Source of the DNA: Spirochaetaceae bacterium
GTDB taxonomy: Bacteria; Spirochaetota; Spirochaetia; DSM-2461
Direction: 5' to 3'
NCBI GenBank assembly: GCA_965224705.1
Contig: OZ245056.1
Span: 2,208,001-2,272,000 of the forward strand
DNA length: 64,000 nt
The position numbers were made by a program, and so were the translations under genes. Numbering within the stretch: position 1 is the stretch's first letter; each line of letters begins with the position of its first letter. Below are positions 82 through 12,416 of the stretch, piece after piece. A model generated the notes under the pieces. It had not been told where the DNA came from and did not search any database. It saw only the letters and a list, made by a program, of their open reading frames with translations.

Positions 82-1902
82 ATGAAAAGACAAATCCTTC
101 TACTTGCGGCCCTCACCATCACAGCCATGATGCTGTCGGCCCAGAACAAAACCGCACTGGTTATTGGCAACGGCGAGTACGAAAACAACTTTGCCGCACT
201 GGCCAACCCGGTGCCCGAGGCCAGGAGAATGGCGGCGGCCCTGGAAGACATCGGTTTCAAGGTAATACGGGCCTACAACGTGCAGAACCAGGAACGGTTT
301 GATGCCCTGTTCGCCATGTTTGAAGAAGAGATAAAGGCCCGTGGCGGCATCGCCCTGTTCCACTACGGCGGCCACGGCGTACAGGTGGACGGCCAGAACT
401 ACCTGCTGCCCACCGAGCGGGACATTCCCGATGAACGGCGGGCGCGAACCCGCGGCATCAACGTGGCCGATGTGGTATCGGCGATGGAATCCGCCCGGGC
501 CGATGCCAACATCGTGATACTGGATGCCTGCCGTGAAAACCCCTTTGGCCGCGGTGCGGCCCGCGGTCTGGCCCGTGTGGATGCGCCTCCCAACAGCATC
601 GTCGTCTATGCGGCGGATGCCGGAGAAACCGCCCAGGACGGCCTGTTCACTCCCACCCTGCTCAAGTACCTGACCCGTCCGGGGATGAGCCTCACCGACA
701 TTCTGATGAACACCCGCCGGGATGTGCGGCAGGCATCGGGCAACCGCCAGCGTCCCGGCGAATACAGCATGCTGGAAACCGACATCTATCTGGCTGGATC
801 CTCAAGTTCCGCGCCTGCCCGCCCCAATGCCCCATCGTTCAGCCTGGAGCAGAGCTACGGCAGCCTGGAGGTATCGGTTCAAACGCCGGGCACCCTGTAC
901 CTGGATGGAAAATCCATGGGCCGGATTCCACCCGGTTCCAGGGCCAGGCTCACCGACATTCCCGCCGGTCGGCATAACCTGGAGATGCGCTACGGGGGCA
1001 AAAGCGAAAGCAAAACCATCACGGTACAGGTAAACCGCTTTCTGGCCGTGGCCTTTAGCTGGGTGGAGCGGCCTGACGGGCTTGAGGGTTATGTGCTGGT
1101 GGAAGGGGGCACGTTTCGGATGGGGAGCCCGTCAAATGAAGTGTCCAGGGATGATGATGAAGAGCCGCAGCACAGCGTAACGGTGGGATCGTTTTATATG
1201 AAGGCTACCGAGGTAACGCATCAGGAATTTCTGGCATTTCTGAACTCAGCGGGAGTATCCCGGACAGGGGAGCTTAACGGCAATGAAATCATTGATATGG
1301 ATGATGAGGATGTCGCCATAGCCTATTCGGGTGGACAGTTTAAGTTTACCGGTTCCTCGTATGCCGCATCGTTGAATACCCCGGTGATAGAGCAAACCTG
1401 GTATGGAGCGGTGGAGTACTGCAATTGGTTAAGCAAGGAGGAAGGACGAACACCGGTGTACCGGATAAACGGCAGCAGTGTAACGGCGAACTGGAGTGCG
1501 GACGGATACCGCTTGCCGACGGAGGCTGAGTGGGAGTATGCGGCACGGGGCGGTAAAAAATCAAGGGGGTATAAGTATTCCGGGAGTAATTCGGCGGGCA
1601 GTGTGGGATGGTACGATGAGAATTCTGGAAGTAAAACCCATCCTGTAGGGCAGAAGCAGGCCAATGAGCTGGGATTGTATGACATGAGTGGGAATGTCAG
1701 GGAATGGTGCTGGGATTGGTATGGGGATTATTCAAGCGGGAGTCAGAGAGATCCCAGAGGGCCGTCTAGCGGGTCGCGCCGCGTGTACCGCGGCGGCAGC
1801 TGGTACTACCCCGGCTGGTCCTTGCGGTCTGCCGATCGCTACGACAATTCGCCTGGCATTAGCTACCGCAACTTCGGCTTCCGCCCCGTTCGGAGGACGT
1901 AA
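82..1902 (+). CDS. DGR target protein: signal peptide + caspase-like (peptidase C14) domain + PEGA domain + FGE-sulfatase/C-type lectin domain carrying the VR
   Basis: Hydrophobic N-terminus; ALVIGNGEY, HYGGHG and ILDACR caspase motifs; PEGA-like LYLDGK..G..P; RLPTEAEWEYAARGG, NELGLYDMSGNVREWCWD and RGGSW...GFR FGE motifs; AAGGA RBS. Confidence 0.92.
   Translation: MKRQILLLAALTITAMMLSAQNKTALVIGNGEYENNFAALANPVPEARRMAAALEDIGFKVIRAYNVQNQERFDALFAMFEEEIKARGGIALFHYGGHGVQVDGQNYLLPTERDIPDERRARTRGINVADVVSAMESARADANIVILDACRENPFGRGAARGLARVDAPPNSIVVYAADAGETAQDGLFTPTLLKYLTRPGMSLTDILMNTRRDVRQASGNRQRPGEYSMLETDIYLAGSSSSAPARPNAPSFSLEQSYGSLEVSVQTPGTLYLDGKSMGRIPPGSRARLTDIPAGRHNLEMRYGGKSESKTITVQVNRFLAVAFSWVERPDGLEGYVLVEGGTFRMGSPSNEVSRDDDEEPQHSVTVGSFYMKATEVTHQEFLAFLNSAGVSRTGELNGNEIIDMDDEDVAIAYSGGQFKFTGSSYAASLNTPVIEQTWYGAVEYCNWLSKEEGRTPVYRINGSSVTANWSADGYRLPTEAEWEYAARGGKKSRGYKYSGSNSAGSVGWYDENSGSKTHPVGQKQANELGLYDMSGNVREWCWDWYGDYSSGSQRDPRGPSSGSRRVYRGGSWYYPGWSLRSADRYDNSPGISYRNFGFRPVRRT
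1768..1885 (+). repeat. DGR variable repeat (VR)
   Basis: Aligns without gaps to 2369-2486 and encodes the C-terminal SGSRRVYRGGSW...NFGFR segment. Confidence 0.93.
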
Positions 1903-1932
1903 ATTTTTGTTTTTTTACCTTTTTACCTTTTG

Positions 1933-2114
1933 GGATAAGCACGGAGTGTTTATCCGCCGCGTCAGCGGCATGGAGGAAGAGGAGCCGAAGGCTCACCTTA
2001 AAAGCCGCCGTTAGGCGGATCAATAAAAACGCACGGGCTTAGGCCCGTGCTCCCTACCTGCTTGTGCCAGGCCGAAGGCCCGGCACAAGCAGGTCCTGTC
2101 CGCCGCAGGCGGAC
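1933..2114. other. Array of seven short hairpins downstream of the VR, mostly with GNA/GNNA loops (candidate DGR target-recognition cruciform region)
   Basis: GGATAAGCAC-GGA-GTGTTTATCC (1933-1955); GCCGC-GTCA-GCGGC; GAGCC-GAA-GGCTC; CCGCC-GTTA-GGCGG; GCACGGGC-TTAG-GCCCGTGC; long GAA-loop stem 2056-2094; GTCCGCC-GCA-GGCGGAC. Confidence 0.75.
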
Positions 2115-2185
2115 CGAAATTTTTTTGGATTTTGGGGTATTTGGTGTGGCCATTATCACGATTAAATGATAATATGCGGTCATGA

Positions 2186-2276
2186 GAGCCAAGAGCCAAG
2201 AGCCAAGAGCCAAGAGCCAAGAGCCAAGAGCCAAGAGCCAAGAGCCAAGAGCCAAGAGCCAAGAGCCAAGAGCCAA
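2186..2276. repeat. Tandem heptamer repeat (GAGCCAA)x13
   Basis: 13 perfect consecutive units counted in the sequence. Confidence 0.97.
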
Positions 2277-2368
2277 GAAAATTATCTATAATCTCTTCAT
2301 CGTGTCAATCCTCTGACACAGATTTTCTGATTTCATATTTTACTAACAAAAAAAGGAAACGGCTTGCA

Positions 2369-2486
2369 AGCGGGTCGAACCGCGTGAACCGCGGCGGCAG
2401 CTGGAACAACAACGGCAGGAACTTGCGGTCTGCCAATCGCAACAACAACTCGCCAGGTAATAGCAACAACAATCTGGGCTTCCGCC
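2369..2486 (+). ncRNA. DGR template repeat (TR)
   Basis: Intergenic copy of the VR with 14 AAC/AAT triplets in the VR frame and 33 adenines; 18 of 23 mismatches to the VR are at TR A positions. Confidence 0.93.
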
Positions 2487-2545
2487 TTGCCTGCGAACCA
2501 AATCCTTCGTCCTGACACAGCCCCGGTAATTCTGACACAGCCTCC

Positions 2546-3243
2546 GAAACCAATATTGAGTCGACTGGAAGAGAGGCGGGCTTTCTCACCGAAGCGGGCA
2601 AACTCTGCTATGAAAAACTGCGGCAGTGGCGGCGGGAAACCGCAGACAAGGAGGGGGTTCCGCCAGGGTAATTGCATCTAATTCTGTCCCAAAAAGAATG
2701 AAAAACACTGATTTTCGGGGTCAATGGAAATTTTTATCTAGTGTCTCAAAGAATGTGGAATCTCCTCAAAGCGGCATTAAACCGCAGAGAGCGCAGAGGT
2801 ACGCAGAGAGATATAGGGCAGCTCTTAAAACCGCTTAGAGCTGCCCGTGGGCGCATGGACGCACCCACATTTTGGGCAAAACGCCCAAAAATGGAGAAAA
2901 AGTCTTACTTTAGTCCGGGTTTTCCGTCTCTATAGCACAAACAGATTGGTCAACATTTATCTTGAACACTCTGCGCTCTCTGCGTCCTCTGCGGTTAAAA
3001 ACCCATGAATAAGGCTTTGAAGAACACTCTGGCTAGTGGATTTTAGATGCGATTGCCCTGGGGGGTCCGCCCTTTGTTGTGGCCCGCAACAGCCAATTGA
3101 TAGAAATCATCACGAATGAACCGGTTAGCATTGAGGCATTGAAGCAGATAAACGGCTTCGGCCAGAAAAAATGCGCCAAATACGGAGCGGCCATAACAGA
3201 CATTATCCGTACCTTCTTTGAAAAAGAAACGCCAACGACATAA
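2546..3243 (+). pseudogene. HRDC-domain DGR accessory gene, 5'-truncated and split by a 397-bp insertion
   Basis: Joining 2546-2663 to 3071-3243 gives in-frame ...LCYEKLRQWRRETADKEGVPPFVVARNSQLIEIITNEPVSIEALKQINGFGQKKCAKYGAAITDII..., a typical HRDC sequence; its stop overlaps the avd ATG; no upstream in-frame ATG. Confidence 0.85.
2664..3060. mobile_element. MITE-like insertion with CAGGG ends (ISAs1-like termini, inferred)
   Basis: Terminal IRs CAGGGTAATTGCATCTAA / TTAGATGCGATTGCCCTG (16/18); flanking 10-bp duplication GGGGTTCCGC / GGGGGTCCGC; internal IR AACCGCAGAG...CTCTGCGGTT (2780-2996); no transposase. Confidence 0.8.
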
Positions 3244-3599
3244 TGACCAAAGACTATCCCCTATTCATAAAATGGCGCGGTCTCGTCTCTTATCTTTTAG
3301 ACCTTAGCGGCAAATATCCAAAAAATGTCCGCTTTAACCTCTGCGATCGCATCACCAACCTATCATTGGATGCCATGGAACTGATTGTTGAGGCAATCTA
3401 CACAAACCAGCGCAGCGTCCCATTGAAGAAACTCAATCTCACCCTGGAGAAAATCCGGGTTCTCATGCAAATCAGCAAGGAAATGAAGCATATTTCCCTG
3501 AAGCAGTACCACTACATTGTATCGGAAATCAACGAATGCGGGAAAATGGTTGGCGGCTGGAATAAGTCACAGCTGCTTGACAGGGAAGGCATGCCGTGA
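3243..3599 (+). CDS. avd: DGR accessory variability determinant Avd (four-helix bundle)
   Basis: 118 aa, basic, YPKNVRFNL and ECGKMVGGW motifs; overlaps the RT start codon. Confidence 0.88.
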   Translation: MTKDYPLFIKWRGLVSYLLDLSGKYPKNVRFNLCDRITNLSLDAMELIVEAIYTNQRSVPLKKLNLTLEKIRVLMQISKEMKHISLKQYHYIVSEINECGKMVGGWNKSQLLDREGMP

Positions 3600-4753
3600 A
3601 GCGTGTCGGCGGTCTGTGGGAACAGTTCTGTTCCTTTGAAAACCTGTACTATGCCTTCAAGAAGGCGTTCCGGTCCACCAAAACCGATGAATCCTTCCGC
3701 TTTGCCTATAACCTGGTTCAAAATCTCTCGGATATTCAGCAGACATTGTCTATGAAAACCTATATGCCGGGAAACTATACCTACTTCACCATCCACGACC
3801 CAAAAGAACGGATAATTTCCGTAGCATCCTTCCGTGATCGGGTGGTTCACCATGGACTAATCAATGTTCTGGAACCCATATATGAATCAGTCTTCATCTC
3901 CGACTCCTAGGAGCCTGTCGGACTTTAAGACTTCGAGGCGATTTTTGATGATTTTTTTCTGATACAAGGCGCCAAAAGCGGAGCGTAGCTGGGCTACGTG
4001 AGCATTTTGGCAACGCGGTAGCGGGAAAAAAGGGCAAAAATCGAGCCGTGAGGCGTAAGTCCGACAGGCTCCTATGCCACCCGGAAAAACAAAGGCACCC
4101 ATGCCGCCGCGAAAAGGGCACAAGGATTCTGTCGGCAGAACAAATACTATCTAAAAATGGATATAAGAAAGTATTTTGACTCCATAAATCATGCCGTCCT
4201 GACAGAAACAATCCACAGAAAAATAAAAGACCCCCTCCTTCTGAATCTCTGTCGGCAAATAATCGGCAAGGGCGGAAACGGAACAACTGGCCTTCCCATC
4301 GGCAACCTGACCAGTCAATTCCTGGCCAATGTCTACCTTGATCCTTTTGATCACTGGGTAAAAGAAACACTCTGCGTAAAACACTACCTTCGCTACATGG
4401 ATGATTTCATCCTCTTCCACAACAACAGGCACCATCTAAAAAAACTCTTCCATGAAATCACCGTTTATTTAACAAAAAAATCCAAATTGAACATAAAACT
4501 CGCCGCCATCAACCAAACGTCTATGGGCCTGCCCTTTTTGGGACTACGGATATTTCCCGCTTTGATTCGCATCCGCAGGGAAAACCTGAACCGAACACGA
4601 AAACGCCTGGCCCAAAGAATGAAAGAATACAAATCCGGCCGCCTTGATGAAATCCGCTATGAGCAAAGCCTACAAAGTTTGTATGGACTTCTTTCCTATT
4701 GGGATAAAACAACAGCCCTGAAAAGCCCGAAACACTGCTACCAGGGAAATTGA
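3596..4753 (+). pseudogene. DGR reverse transcriptase interrupted by a 163-bp MITE (330 aa when reconstructed)
   Basis: N-part has KERIISVASFRDRVVHH; C-part has KMDIRKYFDSINH, GLPIGNLTSQFLANVYL and LRYMDDF; joining 3596-3909 to 4075-4753 restores DSYATRKNKGTHAA in frame. Confidence 0.93.
3910..4072. mobile_element. MITE family A copy inserted in the RT gene
   Basis: Perfect 16-bp TIRs GGAGCCTGTCGGACTT / AAGTCCGACAGGCTCC flanked by a TA duplication; other copies in the window. Confidence 0.92.
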
Positions 4754-5057
4754 ATTGATGACTATCGCATCCTGACCATAAAAACCCGCGAAAAAATCCT
4801 TGACTTCCGATGGTCACAGCATAAGCCGCGGCAGCGGAATGGCGGAAGAGGAGCCGAAGGCCCAGCACGAGCACACCACCCCCACCATCGGCAGACCGAA
4901 TTTTTTTGACCTCCCGGCCAAAGTCCCGGTTTGAGGCAGAAGCCTCCGAGAGAAAACACCCCCCTCCATACTACCAGGCCCTCCGTGCGAAAGCCCCCTA
5001 CACCTGAGCCCCCCACCTCCGTCCCTCCGTGAGAAACTCCCTTCCAGCTAAACAAAA

Positions 5058-5270
5058 AAGGGGGATTCTCAAGGGGGGCACCCCCTTGAGTCGTATTTTT
5101 CTTTGTTAAACTTTCTTTTTGTCGAAAAAAAAGAAAGCTTAGGCCCAGCGGCCCGAGCGTAATTCTTTGTTAAGCTTTCTTTTTGTCGAAAAAAAAGAAA
5201 GTTTAGGCCCCGGATGCATGGCCGAGCAGGAAGCGGAGCTTCCGACCAGGCCCAGCGGCCCGAGCGCCTA
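5058..5270. repeat. Palindromic repeat block (CTCAAGGGGG..CCCCCTTGAG and two CTTTCTTTTTGTCGAAAAAAAAGAAAG units), repeated at 7350-7452
   Basis: Direct comparison of 5058-5160 with 7350-7452; internal tandem unit at ~5099-5146 and ~5163-5209. Confidence 0.75.
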
Positions 5271-5342
5271 ATGAATCAGCGGCAGCCAGCCCCTCCACCC
5301 GGCATTCCCTCACTCACAAAACCATGCTATGCTAAAAACGTC

Positions 5343-7121
5343 ATGAAAAAGTATCTGACTCAGGGCATCACCGATTTTAAGGAATTCATCGACAATAATT
5401 GCTACTTTGTCGATAAAACCCATCTCATAGCGCATCTTATCAATGACCCCAGCAAGGTTCACCTCATCACCCGGCCCCGGCGCTTCGGCAAAACCCTGAA
5501 CCTCAGCATGATCCGCTACTTTTTTGAGGCCCCGCCACCGGGCGGCGACAGCGGCGTTAGCGGCGATGCCCCCTCCGAAGAGCCGCCTAATACTGCGCTG
5601 TTCAACGGCATGTCCGTCGCAGAACATCCACGGCGCCGCGAATACATGGGGCAATATCCGGTGATACACTTGAGTTTCAAGGATGCCAAGGGTTCTTCGC
5701 ATACGGAGTGCATGGGGATCATTAGGAAAATGCTCTCAGTGGAATACCAGCGGCACGAGTATTTGCAAAATTGCGCTGTACTGCGCGAAGCCGATAAAGA
5801 ACTGTTTTCCAGGATATTGGACAGAAACGGCACGGATCAGGACTGCGCCCAATCCATTGAATATCTCTCCTCCTGGCTCAAACGCGCCTACGGCAAACCG
5901 GTCTACATCCTTCTGGACGAGTACGACACCCCGCTGCATGCCGCCTACGCCGACAACTTTTACGATGAAATGATAGCCTTCATCCGCAGCTTCATGGTGC
6001 AGAGCTTCAAGGACAACCCCAATTTGAAGCAGGCGGTGGTCATCGGGATACTCAAAGTGGCCCAGGAGAGCATCTTCAGCGACTTCAACAATCCCAGGGT
6101 GTCCACCCTCATGGATCCGGCAATGAAGGACTGTTTCGGCTTCACGGAACCCGAAGTGGAAGCTATGGCGGACTATTATGGGCTTGGGGACAAGATGGAC
6201 GGCATCCGGGAATGGTACAACGGCTACATCTTCGGCGGGGACATGGTCATCTACAACCCCTGGAGCATCATCAACTACCTGAGCGCCCCGGAGGCCGGAC
6301 TGCGTCCCTACTGGGTGCACACCAGTGCCAACAGGATGGTTAAGGAAACGCTGCAGCTGAACAAAAGGGATAGCCGGGAAACCATGGAGAGGCTGCTTAA
6401 GGGAGAGGAAGTGAGGCGGGAGGTGGTACTCAACATCGTCTACCCGCAAATACGAACCCGTCCGGATGTGGCATGGAGTTTCCTGCTCCACGGCGGTTAT
6501 CTCAAGGCCAGCGAAAGGCAGCAGCACGAGATAAGCCAGGACTACCGACTGGATATTCCCAACCGGGAAGTACGCTATTCCTACATGACCACAATCAAGG
6601 ATTGGCTGGAGGAGGATGTGGAGGCAGGCGAGTCCTTCCATTTCTTCATCCGCGGCATCAGGGAAGGGGATGCCGCCCTGATCGAGAGGGGTCTGGGGAA
6701 GGTTCTCTTAAGCATGGCCAGTTATTACGACACCGCTGATGCTGCTGATGACGATGAGGGAATAGAGCGGGTGGAAGGCTTCTACCACGGACTGGTACTG
6801 GGGATGCTGGCCTACCTAAGCGGCGAGTACACGGTGGAAAGCAACCGGGAATGCGGCATGGGCCGCCCCGACATCGTATTGATTCAACGCGGCCCTGGGC
6901 GGCCGGGCCATGTCCTGCTGTTCGAGTTCAAACGGGAGCCTGCCGCCGGAACCACACCGCTCAAGCAGCTGGCACAGGATGCCTATTCCCAGGCGGAGCG
7001 AAAATACCTGGAGGGGGCGCGGGAAAAGTGGCACCCGGAGGAGATTATCATCTACGGGGTGGGCTTTCGCGGCAAGGCACTGGCTCTGGAGGCAGGCGGG
7101 GGGAACGAAGCTCCCCCATGA
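5343..7121 (+). CDS. AAA-family ATPase with C-terminal PD-(D/E)XK nuclease-like domain
   Basis: GITDF, YFVDKT, ITRPRRFGKTLNLSM (Walker A), ILLDEYDTP (Walker B), YNPWS, EGFYHG and SNRE.G.GRPDI...FEFK; start taken at MKKYL. Confidence 0.88.
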   Translation: MKKYLTQGITDFKEFIDNNCYFVDKTHLIAHLINDPSKVHLITRPRRFGKTLNLSMIRYFFEAPPPGGDSGVSGDAPSEEPPNTALFNGMSVAEHPRRREYMGQYPVIHLSFKDAKGSSHTECMGIIRKMLSVEYQRHEYLQNCAVLREADKELFSRILDRNGTDQDCAQSIEYLSSWLKRAYGKPVYILLDEYDTPLHAAYADNFYDEMIAFIRSFMVQSFKDNPNLKQAVVIGILKVAQESIFSDFNNPRVSTLMDPAMKDCFGFTEPEVEAMADYYGLGDKMDGIREWYNGYIFGGDMVIYNPWSIINYLSAPEAGLRPYWVHTSANRMVKETLQLNKRDSRETMERLLKGEEVRREVVLNIVYPQIRTRPDVAWSFLLHGGYLKASERQQHEISQDYRLDIPNREVRYSYMTTIKDWLEEDVEAGESFHFFIRGIREGDAALIERGLGKVLLSMASYYDTADAADDDEGIERVEGFYHGLVLGMLAYLSGEYTVESNRECGMGRPDIVLIQRGPGRPGHVLLFEFKREPAAGTTPLKQLAQDAYSQAERKYLEGAREKWHPEEIIIYGVGFRGKALALEAGGGNEAPP

Positions 7122-7648: not shown

Positions 7649-7927
7649 GGGACTGTGTCAGAACTTGTCTTTGATCCGCATACGGCGTTGAAAAAGCCGC
7701 TTAAAATGCTCATGTATTGGCGGCTACGTGAGTATTTTGGCAACGCAGCAGCAGGGGAGGCGAGTCTATAAACTCGCATCCTGAGAGAGTGCCGAGCGAT
7801 AGCGAGGAAAAGCCGCCACGGATGGCGGCGAAAGCGAACGAAGGCGGCCCGGAAGAAGCAAGCAGGAAGGTTGCTTCTGGAGGGAAGGGCAAAAATCGAG
7901 CCGTGAGACGTAAATCCGACAGGCTCC
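7649..7927. mobile_element. Longer composite variant of MITE family A
   Basis: Shares GCTACGTGAGTATTTTGGCAACGC and the right end AAATCGAGCCGTGAGACGTAAATCCGACAGGCTCC; extra internal hairpins. Confidence 0.65.
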
Positions 7928-7929
7928 TG

Positions 7930-8423
7930 GTGTCTCAAAGAATGTGGAATCTCCTCAAAGCGGCATTAAACCGCAGAGAACGCAGAGGTACGCAGAGAGA
8001 TATAGGGCAGCTCTTAAAACCGCTTAGAGCTGCCCGTGGGCGCATGGACGCACCCACATTTTGGGCAAAACGCCCAAAAATGGATAAATAGTCTTACTTT
8101 AGTCCGGGTTTTTTCGTCTCTATAGCATAAACAGATTGGTCAACATTTATCTTGAACACTCTGCGTCCTCTGCGGTTAAAAACCCATGAATAAGGCTTTG
8201 AAGAACACTCTGGCTAGTGGATTTTAGATGCGATTGCCCTGGGGGTTCCGTCCTTCGTTGTGGCCCGCAACAGTCAGCGAGTAGAAATCATCGCTAATGA
8301 ACCGGTTAGCATTGAGGCATTGAAGCAGATAAACGGCTTCGGCCAGAAAAAATGCGCCAAATATGGAAATCAACGAATGCGGGAAAATGGTGGGCGGCTG
8401 GAATAAGTCACAGTTGGTTGACA
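7930..8423 (+). pseudogene. Second DGR remnant: partial CAGGG-MITE, HRDC 3' half and avd 3' end fused by deletion
   Basis: 7930-8362 matches 2741-3182, then jumps directly to sequence matching ~3524-3581. Confidence 0.85.
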
Positions 8424-8651: not shown

Positions 8652-10721
8652 CTAAAAAATCGACATCTTAATACGTTTCATAAAACTGATTTTCCGTATG
8701 GGATAATACCCTGTCTGTTCATCCGGTAAAGAGACTCCCACAAGAGTATGATCTCTTCCTCTTTTCTCCATGTGCTTGGGAATCAAGGTGATAACCTGAT
8801 TATCTTCCTTACCGGGAATGGTCAATTCCAGCCGCTGATTCCTTCCGGCCAGTGCCATTTCGGCAAGGTAAACTTTTCCCTGATAATCCAATCCCCTGGC
8901 CGTCATGATTTCACGCCGCCATGAACCAGGACGGATTTGTTCGGGCACCAGGATTAATCGGCGGTGGAGTCTCTTGATGAATATGTTCTTCTCTTCTTCG
9001 GGAAGCTGCTGCACGGCAGGGTGACTGGCAAATGCACCGATAGCAGCCGATAGCGGAAAGAAGTGGGGGAATGACCAGTTTTCCTTGATTGGAGGCTCGT
9101 CAATATCGTAATCGTATCTGAACGGTAATGAATCCTCTTCCTGTTCCAATTCTGCGTCGATTACATTGAGAAGGTGATCACTGAATCCCTGGATGTGCGG
9201 AATGTAGCCAATGTCCACTTTTTCAAGGGCAGTTCGCCATGCCTTTCTTGTCCGGTAGTCCAGCAGCCATACGCCTTCTGCCGGATGATCAATGAAAAGG
9301 GTTCTCAGGGCATGGGTTTTGTTCAGGAGTTTTTTACGATGACCTTTTACCTGTAGAACAACGGCAAACTGAAGGGAGATGGCACGGTAATCGGTTTCCC
9401 ACTCAGACATCAGCGTGGAGAGATTCTCCGGTACGGGATGCCCGGAATACTTCTCTATGTTATTAACAAAGGAATCGATAATTATTCCGGCATCCAGTCC
9501 TTTTATATATCGGTTTTTCTCCAGGCGAAAACTGCTCACCGCATCACAGATAACAGGTTCTGCTGTCAGGGCAAGATCGCAGAACAATGGGAGTTCGGGA
9601 TGGCAGATGAAATCACCGGACGGAGTTATGGTAAGACATGGTGCATTGGAAGGTTTCCGAGGTATGGGACGGCCAATTGTGCCATTTTCTCCGATGACAA
9701 ATTCACCAGTCAACACCAGACGGGACACAATGCTATGGGCGAATTGAGGAGAAATTGGATATCTTTCCCCGGCAAAAATCTGGATCAGGTTAGCAATTCT
9801 ATCGCCATTATAGGCAATCCCCAAAGGCATGGAATTGACAATTTTTTTTGCAATCTCAAGGGCGTTTTCCAGCGATAAACCGCGTTTTTTGATGATGCCG
9901 GAAATCACATGAATCCGCCGCTTATTCCGGGACCATTTCTCCATGTCCCTCCATACGTCCATATTCACCTTGAGTTTGCCGGATTTTCTACGCTGGTAGT
10001 CAATGGAAGATGGAGTTCCCAATCCTTCCCACTCCGGGATAACGATTTCATATCTTCGATTCCTAGATGATTCGTAGTCGGCTAAATCCAGTTCCAGCAA
10101 TACATTTCCGGCAAGCATAAGACGTTCATTACTTCTGTCGTCATGAAAAAGACGGGGAAAACGTTCTTTGATCAGTGCCAGAGTTTTTTTTCGCCAGCCT
10201 CCTCCCACTTTGAACAGATGATGAGATTCCAGAAGAAAACTCAAAGCTGAAGTTAAAAAACTGTCATCAAGCCATGATTCAATGCTTTCCTTAATCTCTC
10301 CGACAGGTTCACCAAGGATGATTCCCGGACCAAGGAAGCCGGCATTCTTTATCTCAATGCCAAGAGGAGTCAAAATGAAGGTTTCCATTTCATACTCATA
10401 ATTTCTGAAGATGAGAATTCGCTCTTCCAGGTTGAGCAGCCGCTCCCTTAATGAAAGCTGGCTTATGTGGGGTACCAGACATCTGAGGCTGTTTTCAGTT
10501 GGATATTCATATATATCTATACAGGTGAGGATGTGGGCATCCAGTTCATCAATGAACTCGATACTGCGGCGGATAACATCATCACGCTGAAGGAATTCCG
10601 ATAATTTTTTCATCATCTCAGGTTTGTGGAATGGAGTACTGACCGGTCCAAGATAGTGACGATAGACTTCAAAAAAAGACGATTCCGGCAGGGATGAAAA
10701 AACTCTCTCCCATCCATTCAT
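8652..10721 (-). CDS. Helicase-associated domain protein, partner of the XPB-like helicase
   Basis: Long ORF abutting the XPB-like gene; segment resembling the XPB N-terminal helicase-associated domain (VPENLSTLMSEW). Confidence 0.6.
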   Translation of the reverse strand: MNGWERVFSSLPESSFFEVYRHYLGPVSTPFHKPEMMKKLSEFLQRDDVIRRSIEFIDELDAHILTCIDIYEYPTENSLRCLVPHISQLSLRERLLNLEERILIFRNYEYEMETFILTPLGIEIKNAGFLGPGIILGEPVGEIKESIESWLDDSFLTSALSFLLESHHLFKVGGGWRKKTLALIKERFPRLFHDDRSNERLMLAGNVLLELDLADYESSRNRRYEIVIPEWEGLGTPSSIDYQRRKSGKLKVNMDVWRDMEKWSRNKRRIHVISGIIKKRGLSLENALEIAKKIVNSMPLGIAYNGDRIANLIQIFAGERYPISPQFAHSIVSRLVLTGEFVIGENGTIGRPIPRKPSNAPCLTITPSGDFICHPELPLFCDLALTAEPVICDAVSSFRLEKNRYIKGLDAGIIIDSFVNNIEKYSGHPVPENLSTLMSEWETDYRAISLQFAVVLQVKGHRKKLLNKTHALRTLFIDHPAEGVWLLDYRTRKAWRTALEKVDIGYIPHIQGFSDHLLNVIDAELEQEEDSLPFRYDYDIDEPPIKENWSFPHFFPLSAAIGAFASHPAVQQLPEEEKNIFIKRLHRRLILVPEQIRPGSWRREIMTARGLDYQGKVYLAEMALAGRNQRLELTIPGKEDNQVITLIPKHMEKRGRDHTLVGVSLPDEQTGYYPIRKISFMKRIKMSIF

Positions 10722-12416
10722 TTATTCGTCCTCCCAGATATCTATCGTATAACGGTAGCCCTGTTCGGTAAGGAAACGCTGTCGATTGAGAGCAAAGTTT
10801 TCTTCAACTGTTCCTCTGGAGACAAGGGAATAGAACCATGAATCCTTTTTTTTCGGTCTCAATATACGTCCCAGCCGCTGGGCTTCTTCCTGCCGGGAAC
10901 CAAAGGTTCCTGATAGTTGAATTGCCACTGAAGCATCCGGAAGGTCAATGGCAAAATTGGCCACTTTTGAAACGACAATGATTCGTTCCATTCCTTTCTT
11001 GAACTGATCGTAGATCCTTTCGCGTTCTGCATTGGGTGTTTTTCCCGTGATGATAGGGACACGGAGTTGTCTGGCTACTTCCTCCAACTGGGTAATGTAC
11101 TGGCCAATAACCAGTATCTGGTCTTCATATCGATTCTTGACCAATTGCAGTGCCGCTTCAATTTTTCTCGGATTTTCTGCAGCAATGCGGAATTTGCTCC
11201 GCCTGTCTGCCATGGCATAACGAATTCTTAATTCCTTTGGAAGGAACATGCGGATCTCCTGGCACCGGGCTTCGGCAATCCATCCGGAGGCTTCCAGTTC
11301 CTTCCAGGGTATGTCGACACGTTTCGGCCCGACCAGGGAGAACACATCCCGTTCGGCACCATCCTCCCTGATGAGTGTGGCCGTGAGGCCAAGGCGTCTT
11401 ACAGCCTGCAGCTCTGCGGTAACCCGGAACACAGGAGCGGGAAGAAGGTGTACTTCATCGTAAATGATCAACCCCCAGGGGTAGAGACGAAATAAATCAA
11501 AATGGGGGAATGGACTGTGTCTGCTCTGCCTCCATGTAATTATCTGGTAGGTTGCAATTGTCACAGGAGCGGTAGACTTTTTGTCTCCTGTGTATTCGGC
11601 AATATCCTCTTCTCTGATATGAGTTTTATCCAGAAGTTCGTTTCGCCATTGATGGACTGCCGCTACATTTGTTGTCAGTATGAGAGTATGACGACAAAGA
11701 CTGGCCATGGCTGCAATACCAACGACCGTTTTCCCGGATCCACAGGGCATAACCACTGTTCCAAACCCCGTTCCGGGCTCACCGGTACCGAAAAATGAAC
11801 GGACTGCAAATCTCTGATAATCCCTGATTACAAATGGTAATCCACTTGAGCATTTTTCTTTGATCTGGATATCAAATGTCTTTCCATCTCTCAGGGGAGC
11901 CAGATCAATGATTGGATAACCTATTTTAATCAGTTCAGCCTTGACAGTTCCCCGGTACATGAGGGATAAGATGAAATCATCCCCATCAGGTATAAGGAAT
12001 CTTGAAAGGGATTTATGAGAACGGAGTTCTGTTGCAATGTCTTTATCATCAATCTTGAGGGCCAGTCGAGCATTGGAAGCATTATTGCATTCGTCATCTT
12101 TTCCGGGGAGGGGAATCAGTCTGAGCTTTCCCCATCTGGACAGGATGTCCTGAATTTGAGTTATGACATTGTCCGGTACCTGGTATCGGCTCCACCTCTT
12201 GAGCGATGAGATGATCTGTGAACCAGTCCAGTGAGCTCCGGCCGCATTCCACAGGGAAAGGGGCGATATTCTGTAGGTGTGGATGTGCTCCGGGGATTTT
12301 TCCAGTTCGGCATAGGCTGAGATTTCTCCACGAGCTTTCTCAAACGAAGGAATATGTACATCAAGAAGGAGCGAACCATCCCCCTGTACGATGAGTGGAT
12401 TTTCTTCTAAACTCAT
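10722..12416 (-). CDS. XPB/Rad25-like DNA repair helicase (superfamily 2)
   Basis: PLIVQGDGSLLL, ELEKSPEHIHTYRISPLSLWNA, MPCGSGKT, DEVH, GLTAT and EEAQRLGRILRPK motifs. Confidence 0.92.
   Translation of the reverse strand: MSLEENPLIVQGDGSLLLDVHIPSFEKARGEISAYAELEKSPEHIHTYRISPLSLWNAAGAHWTGSQIISSLKRWSRYQVPDNVITQIQDILSRWGKLRLIPLPGKDDECNNASNARLALKIDDKDIATELRSHKSLSRFLIPDGDDFILSLMYRGTVKAELIKIGYPIIDLAPLRDGKTFDIQIKEKCSSGLPFVIRDYQRFAVRSFFGTGEPGTGFGTVVMPCGSGKTVVGIAAMASLCRHTLILTTNVAAVHQWRNELLDKTHIREEDIAEYTGDKKSTAPVTIATYQIITWRQSRHSPFPHFDLFRLYPWGLIIYDEVHLLPAPVFRVTAELQAVRRLGLTATLIREDGAERDVFSLVGPKRVDIPWKELEASGWIAEARCQEIRMFLPKELRIRYAMADRRSKFRIAAENPRKIEAALQLVKNRYEDQILVIGQYITQLEEVARQLRVPIITGKTPNAERERIYDQFKKGMERIIVVSKVANFAIDLPDASVAIQLSGTFGSRQEEAQRLGRILRPKKKDSWFYSLVSRGTVEENFALNRQRFLTEQGYRYTIDIWEDE

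Follow-up and report, generated by a model that had tools for sequence, protein, structure and literature searches.

Does the chromosome of this spirochete carry a diversity-generating retroelement (DGR), and can that element still rewrite its targets? The question is raised by the left part of the window (the whole 64,000-nt stretch of DNA that was analysed), where the original prediction described a complete element with HRDC, Avd and a reverse transcriptase (RT), hidden among the open reading frames by two broken genes. At a probability of nearly nine in ten, we read the locus as a chromosomal HRDC- and Avd-containing DGR (target-TR-HRDC-avd-RT) that was recently knocked out here, whole alleles persisting in related strains. 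The copying and replacement mechanism of DGRs is established for BPP-1, and the anatomy of the present cassette suggests the same course: the TR RNA would be copied by the RT together with Avd, adenines being miscopied, and the cDNA would replace the variable repeat (VR), so that as many as 18 residues in the tip of a C-type-lectin (CLec) domain would be altered.

The template repeat and its target genes

The repeats and neighbouring non-coding features are the following.

82..1902, + strand: target gene 1 (606 aa), with a caspase-like domain, a beta-sandwich linker and an FGE/C-type-lectin domain with the VR at its end
1768..1885, + strand: VR1, the variable repeat
1933..1955, + strand: hairpin with a 3-nt GGA loop, 3' of the VR (fold z -3.4 for 1880-2020)
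2031..2114, no strand assigned: three more GC-rich hairpins, between target and TR (fold z -7.5)
2185..2275, + strand: TR-leader array in which a 7-mer is repeated 13 times without error, the only such array in the genome
2369..2486, + strand: TR1, the template repeat
2480..2538, + strand: right-hand terminus of a small dispersed repeat, which joins the 3' end of the TR through a short sequence common to both
4825..4864, + strand: 90% copy of the post-VR sequence (1956-1995), placed 3' of the RT

The 3' end of target gene 1 (1768-1884) aligns without gaps to the TR (2369-2485) over 117 nt with 23 mismatches, 18 of which fall at TR adenines (Fisher p=2.4e-8) and change them to T (9), C (5) or G (4), and none of the 23 has an A on the VR side. 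The TR contains 33 adenines and 14 AAY triplets, each triplet being in frame with the target gene, and about 10^18.7 peptides are possible; the alignment length, the mismatch counts and the numbers of adenines and AAY triplets had been given exactly by the original prediction. As is usual for DGRs, whose VRs lie at the 3' ends of CLec or Ig-fold genes, the VR here lies at the end of a CLec gene and the adenines occupy first and second codon places. Another part of the genome carries a second allele of the TR, which agrees with VR1 at one of the adenine mismatches (TR 2455) and at 4 of the 5 non-adenine ones; the mismatches in common with that allele are probably not the work of mutagenesis by TR1. 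For the VR1/VR3 pair, it is conceivable that retrohoming replaced the 5' 80 nt only and spared the 3' block, contrary to the 3'-boundary rule of BPP-1.

Adenine-specific mismatches to the TR recur at two more targets. The best fit is a gene 3 kb upstream (C1:2205543; 14 of 16 mismatches at A, 2 non-A), and a third target lies 700 kb away (C1:2907971; 18 at A, 8 non-A). Judged by these repeats, the targets number three or more, and target gene 1 is not the one that fits best. One TR would have served several dispersed genes for exported proteins that pair a caspase-like protease with a CLec domain.

The product of target gene 1 starts, by inspection only, with a signal-peptide-like segment that has no lipobox Cys, and matches PF00656 at aa 23-236 (E 3e-28) and PF03781 at aa 336-604 (E 2e-55). 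The His-Gly and Asp-x-Cys-Arg dyad of caspase-like (C14) peptidases is found in its N-terminal part, and the two residues concerned, His98 and Cys150, are invariant across 60 homologues. In the predicted structure (pLDDT 90) the top fold match is Treponema denticola TvpA (2y3c), a lipoprotein, followed by FGE and MALT1; TvpA is also the best match by sequence. All four caspase-CLec target genes are intact and each begins in the same signal-peptide-like manner. The targets are described from their sequences as putative signal-peptide, caspase-like protease and C-type-lectin proteins, which would be exported, would bind a ligand through the variable CLec domain and would act as proteases. The variable domain most likely sets the binding partner, and hence the site of protease action. 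The claim that the locus diversified the C-terminus of an exported protein stands as regards the signal-peptide-like N-terminus and the C-terminal CLec domain with its VR, but it overlooked the further targets.

The stem of the hairpin at 1933..1955 recurs 3' of VR2, VR3, VRB and TR2. This predicted conserved stem-loop lies 48 nt after the VR, farther from it than in BPP-1, and is likely the target-recognition cruciform. At the paralogous locus the 7-mer of the TR leader occurs about twice. The dispersed repeat at 2480..2538 has two further copies in the genome with 86-90% identity over 58 nt, and shorter matches to 6 more, and its fusion to the TR is taken from the alignment to mark the place of the missing TR spacer and HRDC 5' part. 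A promoter scan returned 3 sites against 4.4 expected, and a terminator scan 8 against 8.2; the RNA runs X10-X13 contained a fraction of 0.12-0.20 of the words. A prophage origin was rejected: no phage Pfam family was found in any of the 18 flanking ORFs scanned, and the flanks consist of housekeeping genes.

Lesions of the cassette and alleles in related strains

Downstream of the TR lie the accessory and RT genes, together with the elements inserted in them.

2546..3243, + strand: HRDC accessory pseudogene (PF00570), residues 54-149 only, without start codon, interrupted
2664..3060, no strand assigned: 397-bp MITE in HRDC, with terminal inverted repeats and a 10-bp target duplication (9/10 match)
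3243..3599, + strand: avd, intact (118 aa, pI 9.4; NF033474 90.1 bits, cut-off 80)
3596..4753, + strand: DGR reverse transcriptase pseudogene, with LPIGNLTSQ and YMDD and a stop at codon 105 from the insertion
3910..4072, no strand assigned: 163-bp MITE in RT, with a 2-bp TA duplication and ends common to a full IS1182 element
7927..8423, + strand: second cassette remnant

Since the score of Avd lies above the NCBIfam threshold and the RT clusters with those of DGRs (see below), the locus is a real DGR of HRDC and Avd architecture; the three domains are all present as first described, as are the coupling overlaps TAATG (3241-3245) and GTGA (3596-3599). Aligned to the whole 149-aa HRDC protein of a relative (P0258), the remnant has no codons 1-53. 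PF00570 is found on both, which places the locus in architecture C (HRDC-containing), with the gene a pseudogene here; in the HRDC cluster 5 of 7 members have 149 aa and the other 2 end at the same MITE site.

The 397-bp MITE has 15 long matches in the genome, and a 10-bp duplication with at most one mismatch flanks 15 of 17 end-pairs. Its CAGGG ends and 10-bp duplication presumably fit ISAs1, a transposase of which, as a possible autonomous partner, was not found in the genome. The 163-bp MITE, across which the RT frame meets four stops, has 125 near-full matches genome-wide (2-bp duplication at 78 of 139 end-pairs); its first 21 nt are 90% and its last 24 nt 88% identical to the ends of a full IS1182 (C1:1526964-1528570) with an open transposase frame (323 bits, cut-off 270), which identifies it as an IS1182-derived MITE. 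To these two insertions, which account for the two broken genes noted in the original prediction, a third lesion that it missed has to be added, namely the loss of the TR 3' spacer together with HRDC residues 1-53. The full parts list thus supports the word 'complete', but three lesions, and a genome in which no other whole DGR RT was found, do not. The window copy has neither an uninterrupted RT nor an intact TR 3' spacer, and we infer that the DGR is non-functional in this genome; the three lesions would have left the target genes intact and the VRs frozen.

Further decay is seen elsewhere. In the second remnant on the same stretch, a 397-type MITE lies in HRDC, the C-terminal part of which is joined to the avd 3' end. 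Cassette remnants other than the main copy number at least five; they are scattered through the genome and broken in different ways. A weak Avd-like match at C1:1007707 (28.9 bits) proved to be a truncated four-helix-bundle ORF with no DGR-type RT match there.

Evidence from reads consists of contigs, one per run, at 82% likeness, with 15 of 172 joints and 40 of 1074 differences listed. It bears on the reading, improbable in our estimate, that the DGR is still active, through a mixed-population allele in the assembly, a split RT or an RT acting in trans. Among the joints listed, an empty RT site (joint exactly 165 nt), and with it a whole-RT allele, occurs in 3 of 4 runs; run X2, however, carries the allele of the window with 0 differences and reads into the MITE on either side, which shows that the insertion is real DNA. 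For the C-terminal part of the RT an ATG is available at 4157, but a split RT would be without residues 105-132. Although avd, the TR and the four target ORFs are intact, the sole other DGR-type RT of the genome is interrupted and truncated, a relative has nearly the same VR3 (differences at 2 of 39 residues), and the TR spacer, to which one report assigns cDNA priming in BPP-1 (PMC5703328), is missing here.

Less probable still is a reversible switch by which MITE insertions would turn diversification off and on. Inserted and empty alleles are both found, and the full IS1182 shares its ends with the MITE and has an open frame for a transposase, but the empty allele has no duplication and resembles a never-inserted site; with 125 genomic copies of this MITE, an insertion in the RT needs no special reason. 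The spacer/HRDC deletion is irreversible, and the differently broken remnants speak against a switch, as do simple losses of 950 and 470 nt across avd/RT in other strains (among the joints listed) and the internally deleted RTs also present among relatives.

The knocked-out DGR with whole alleles in related strains agrees with the proteins of relatives. Their sequences and the empty sites in the runs indicate that the RT MITE insertion is polymorphic among strains, and that whole RT (310 of 330 residues identical, 94%, in P0001), HRDC and Avd are encoded in relatives; these three (P0001, P0258 and P0133), known from proteins, would belong to one cassette, given that their contigs are equally long (28,589). 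Neither VR1 differences nor a joint of an empty HRDC site occur among the joints and differences listed. Of the seven VR2 differences in that listing, six are at TR adenines and one brings back the TR base; the 2 contigs that carry the six belong to a single run, so that these represent one allele. Compared with the translated TR, the VR peptides of seven relatives are changed in 85 of 126 A-codon columns versus 5 of 147 others, a comparison that is not adenine-specific because the A-codon columns are also loop positions. Both results place the variation among relatives mainly at TR-adenine positions, as the original prediction had required.

In a search with the whole RT against 38 genomes of the order, only G000 and G012 were retrieved at E<=1e-50, and therefore no whole copy of this cassette lineage is present among the 38. 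GTDB genomes gave three related loci, none close (RT identity at best 49-50%), JGI metagenome contigs gave 0 matches to a degenerate TR/VR pattern, and plasmids gave 2 distant FGE-type matches to the TR. The same-genus genome G012 carries a different DGR.

The class of the reverse transcriptase

The best PDB match of the RT is 8ub7 (328 aa, E 5e-26), ahead of a group II RT (2e-15) and a retron RT (4e-5). In the tree it groups with BPP-1, ANMV-1, Lagaffe and RTs with verified TR/VR pairs, the inner branches being starred; the outer branch separating all DGR RTs from others has a support of 87/95, is unstarred and includes one long-branch RT of unknown class. Together with the IGxxxSQ and YMDD motifs, this position in the DGR clade answers the phylogenetic check proposed at the outset: the RT is of DGR type and does not group with group II intron or retron RTs. 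A group II intron RT was rejected on the TIGR04416 scores of its two parts (97 and 31 bits, cut-off 300), on YMDD instead of YADD and on a position outside the group II clade, and a retron RT on a profile score of 68 bits (cut-off 235) and a position away from the single, long-branch retron-like outgroup. That the TR/VR likeness is an ordinary partial gene-end duplication beside an unrelated group II intron or retron RT, as a repeat-rich genome with three group II-like RTs and the TIGR04416 match of the RT half (E 1e-27) might suggest, is refuted by the one-directional adenine specificity (p=2e-8), the Avd score, the DGR motif and tree position, and the adenine-focused variation among relatives.

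Known systems and wider significance

HRDC-containing DGRs (architecture C) have the T. denticola TvpA DGR as prototype, and Wu et al. found HRDC in 14 of 372 DGRs, about half of those also with avd (PMC5758913, PMC4891356). Like the TvpA DGR, the present one is chromosomal, belongs to a spirochete, and has CLec/FGE targets, HRDC between TR and RT, overlapping genes and remote targets; unlike it, it combines HRDC with Avd, its targets bear a caspase-like domain and no lipobox, and the copy is broken. The DGR loci of Thiohalocapsa PB-PSB1, a multicellular proteobacterium, comprise 14 targets over several independent DGRs with ties to conflict systems (bioRxiv 10.1101/2023.09.22.558884). They resemble our locus in an IS-rich genome, duplicated loci, MITE-like sequences cutting or replacing RT and TR, the natural coexistence of interrupted RT variants with whole ones and a caspase-like domain on a target, whereas the targets here are predicted to be exported and 0 conflict-system genes were found among the flanking ORFs scanned. 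Cyanobacterial DGRs, too, have a caspase-like N-terminus grafted to a variable CLec domain, remote paralogous targets and transposases nearby, but their orthocaspase-CLec proteins are mostly predicted to be cytosolic (PMC7517822), unlike the four targets here with their signal-peptide-like starts. The BPP-1 DGR shares the TR/VR pair, Avd, RT motifs and, on the fold prediction here, a hairpin 3' of the VR, and differs in being phage-borne, in its single target, in being without HRDC and in the order avd-TR-brt. HRDC DGRs, remote targets, caspase-CLec targets and MITE-degraded DGRs each have published precedent; a literature search that covered few of the subscription papers found no paper on DGRs of mollusc-associated spirochetes.

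In G012, which has 21 CLec genes, a single TR fits 15 of 22 VR loci, more than the maximum of 7 non-adjacent targets given by Wu et al. It is conceivable, though we hold this only tentatively, that this animal-associated spirochete genus maintains, over the whole chromosome, a set of hypervariable exported proteins of lectin fold, some with catalytically intact caspase-like proteases, with one TR per DGR and MITE-driven switching between diversifying and frozen states; the variable domain would then be a programmable 'address label' for a protease at the host/microbial interface. The locus itself presents a known system as a well-preserved fossil and is a case of DGR decay amid IS expansion, with whole and broken alleles both in nature. 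If the wider pattern holds, it would offer a tractable model of what DGRs do for cells and of the role of HRDC beside Avd, in which frozen and diversifying repertoires could be compared between sister strains.

Anatomy and class of the retroelement

The locus is a real diversity-generating retroelement (DGR) of a known type that is disabled in the genome carrying it (G000; 3.0 Mb in one contig, C1, of which the window is 2208001-2272000); its anatomy, adenine bias and lesions, the whole alleles in relatives and the adenine-focused variation are all directly observed. The mismatch figures of the original prediction proved exact: in the 117-nt alignment of 1768-1884 with 2369-2485 there are 23 mismatches, of which 18 fall at the 33 adenines of the template repeat (TR1; p=2.4e-8, Fisher), and at none of the 23 does the variable repeat (VR1) carry an A. 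The 14 AAY triplets were likewise recovered and lie in the reading frame of the target gene, and both proposed gene overlaps, TAATG and GTGA, are present. The TR leader contains 13 perfect copies of a 7-mer at 2185-2275 (about two at the paralogous locus), an array that could be a slippage expansion capable of varying TR expression.

The Avd of the cassette passes the NF033474 cut-off, and the reverse transcriptase (RT) has the motifs LPIGNLTSQ and YMDD. The top match of the RT in a PDB search is 8ub7, which at 328 aa has the length of the BPP-1 RT and which we take to be that enzyme. In a tree of 28 rows, the RT nests in starred clades with RTs having verified TR/VR pairs, as the original class assignment implied; the outer DGR branch (87/95) carries no star and also contains a single RT, on a long branch, whose class is unassigned, and the nine RTs outside it are labelled group II-like from motif and size alone. 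A 426-aa RT, about 25% like the DGR RT, is present in three copies in G000 (C1:333k, 1072k and 1653k), presumed to be group II introns.

HRDC-containing DGRs constitute architecture C of Wu et al. (14 of 372, about half with avd; PMC5758913), whose Table S1/Fig. S3 may already include the HRDC and avd gene order seen here. In T. denticola, HRDC also lies between TR and RT, and remote targets and remnants are reported (Nimkulrat et al., PMC4891356).

The flanks consist of housekeeping and transport genes, and phage families were found in none of the 18 flanking ORFs scanned. An XPB-type helicase with a partner gene occupies 8652-12416 (-); the Atlas clusters nearest to the partner carry TP_0021_N and are mostly from Spirochaetota, which, together with named homologues of the target from Spirochaetia, makes a spirochete the probable host. 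Sequencing runs labelled as mollusc metagenomes contain the window stretch, and one of them, X5, covers all 30 bins; a search of the accessible literature found no publication on DGRs of mollusc-associated spirochetes.

Lesions in the cassette and whole alleles in relatives

Three lesions break this copy. In the first, a 163-bp element at 3910-4072, flanked by a TA duplication, interrupts the RT at codon 105 and adds four stops; it has 125 near-full matches genome-wide, and its ends also occur on a full IS1182. The second is a 397-bp element inserted in HRDC at 2664-3060 and flanked by a 10-bp duplication; a search of the genome for an ISAs1 transposase as its partner found none. In the third, HRDC lacks residues 1-53, compared with a whole 149-aa relative, and has lost its start codon, and the 3' end of TR1 directly abuts the end of a third, small dispersed repeat, so that the TR 3' spacer is lost; in BPP-1 that spacer primes cDNA synthesis (PMC5703328). 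Only one other DGR-type RT was found in the genome, and it is interrupted and truncated. Just upstream of the window, an IS1182 transposase fragment (93% over 609 nt) lies between the two targets at 10955-12016 (-) of the extracted locus L001; a 198-aa ORF at 10339-10935 of L001 contains internal repeats and has no match in Pfam.

In three of the four runs compared, one contig each carries the empty-site joint of the RT, with exactly 165 nt skipped; the fourth carries the insertion, shows 0 differences from the window and is not independent, since it is possibly the source of the window. Deletions of 950 and 470 nt through avd/RT occur in other runs, among the 15 joints listed out of 172. The relatives' protein P0001 is a whole RT of 332 aa (310 of 330 residues identical) in a cluster with two whole and three shorter members. 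In the HRDC cluster, five of seven members are whole and two stop at the same MITE site with the N-terminus kept, which places the MITE insertion before the 5' deletion. We infer that the RT P0001, the Avd P0133 and the HRDC P0258 are linked, as each comes from a contig of 28,589 nt. Chance hits in an IS-rich genome are a likelier cause of the decay than a designed switch; the PB-PSB1 preprint also describes DGRs degraded by MITEs, in which interrupted RT variants coexist with whole ones (10.1101/2023.09.22.558884).

Dispersed targets and variation at template adenines

In the 606-aa target, aa 23-236 form a caspase domain and aa 336-604 an FGE/C-type-lectin (CLec) domain; the best PDB match of the protein, by sequence and fold, is T. 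denticola TvpA, followed by FGE and MALT1. His98 and Cys150 are invariant across 60 homologues; Spirochaetia are among the named homologues of the target. The middle beta domain has no match in Pfam and may be PEGA-like; by inspection, the N-terminus resembles a cleavable signal peptide lacking a lipobox. The hairpin 3' of VR1 recurs 3' of the VRs of other targets. Four targets combine a signal-peptide-like N-terminus with caspase and CLec domains, the catalytic dyad being intact in each; the orthocaspase-CLec targets of Vallota-Eastman et al. are mostly predicted to be cytosolic (PMC7517822).

A genome scan found seven VR-like sites besides TR1 and a second template, TR2. The positions of these sites, of TR2 and of associated genes are:

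C1:1539360-1539175 (-), locus L002: TR2, unmutated
C1:2202573-2205677 (L001 6573-9677): 1034-aa target, 3 kb upstream of the window
C1:2205543: VR2, in the 1034-aa gene; 14 A and 2 non-A mismatches
window 1768-1885: VR1; 18 A and 5 non-A mismatches
C1:2907971 (-): VR3; 18 A and 8 non-A mismatches
four older VR-like sites: A/non-A mismatches 20/19, 21/18, 22/22 and 25/31
window 5214-7121, and near C1:520k, 527k, 1536k and 2910k: AAA-ATPase and PD-(D/E)XK genes

VR2 fits TR1 best, including the private 3' markers of TR1. The 1034-aa protein consists of a predicted signal peptide, a caspase-like domain, a coiled coil and CLec, and a degenerate TR 5' fragment lies downstream of its gene at C1:2206233. 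The AAA-ATPase and PD-(D/E)XK genes have about 29 matches in the genome, adjoin most targets and cassette remnants, and may help to disperse them through recombination.

In BPP-1, RT and Avd copy the TR RNA, miscopying adenines, and the cDNA replaces the VR; here, one TR would have acted in trans on dispersed targets. At least seven read differences fall in VR2, six at TR adenines and one restoring the TR base (p=0.003), among the 40 read differences listed out of 1074 and representing one allele from one run, with X5 sharing some. In line with the expected focus of VR variation on template adenines, the VR peptides of seven relatives depart from the translated TR at 85 of 126 A-codon columns versus 5 of 147 others; three further proteins entered had no VR motif, and P0140, P0141, P0143 and P0148 were left out (two of them stop short of the VR, one belongs to genome G012 and one is divergent). 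In one orthologous pair, 16 of 39 VR residues differ versus 15 of 565 elsewhere. VR3 is nearly constant in a relative (2 of 39 residues differ), and therefore not all targets have been recently rewritten.

TR2, whose leader is 90% like window 2262-2486, is joined to VR-downstream sequence and then a 163-type MITE; the locus has the appearance of a recombination between TR and VR in which the remaining cassette was removed. TR2 bases match four of the five non-A mismatches of VR1 and one 'A' mismatch. The final 38 nt of VR1 and VR3, a block bearing TR2-type markers, are identical: between these two sequences, 13 of 23 TR-A positions differ in the first 80 nt versus none of nine in the last 38 (p=0.004). 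Short gene conversion between paralogues, which are mosaic in G000, and retrohoming of the 5' part only account for this pattern equally well, even though the latter is unexpected from BPP-1, where 3' cDNA integration occurs near the VR 3' end (PMC3240598, PMC5703328).

Related cassettes and the target repertoire of the genus

At least five further cassette remnants are present in G000. Three remnants lie at C1:520141-520320, 526185-527489 and 222167-222647: in one, the N-terminal part of HRDC is fused to the C-terminal part of the RT, and the others are two second-lineage copies with HRDC frameshifted, RT interrupted or truncated and no avd seen. CLec genes number 8, 13, 13 and 21 in G000, G001, G009 and G012, the best-assembled of the genomes with many; the remaining 10 of the 14 genomes, most of these fragmented, have 0-3. 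With the RT query, only RT fragments were found in G001 and G009. G012 holds a whole DGR:

G012 C2:387682-389252: HRDC-like gene, RT and TR of a different lineage; VR loci among L047-L072

No Avd was found beside it. Its TR fits 15 of the 22 VR-like loci examined (out of 25 matches besides the TR), with 11-19 mismatches at A and no more than 4 elsewhere, and 14 of these are distinct; three of five G009 loci also fit it, with at most 3 non-A mismatches. A second DGR of G012 (C1:404.8-407k, L027) has an Avd-like ORF, an RT that is split, and an unrelated TR/VR pair in which 24 of 25 mismatches fall at A. For comparison, Wu et al. give seven as the maximum of non-adjacent targets (PMC5758913), and Vallota-Eastman et al. 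count 76 remote targets in 21 genomes (PMC7517822).

The genus pattern is to be read as that of one lineage, because kin are not independent. The variable CLec tip would set the binding specificity of an exported protein with a protease at its other end, and in G000 the VR repertoire would be frozen. In a tentative reading, to which we give rather less than even odds (about 0.3), exported protease-lectin fusions form a repertoire spanning the genus, diversified under single templates and frozen at the level of the strain.
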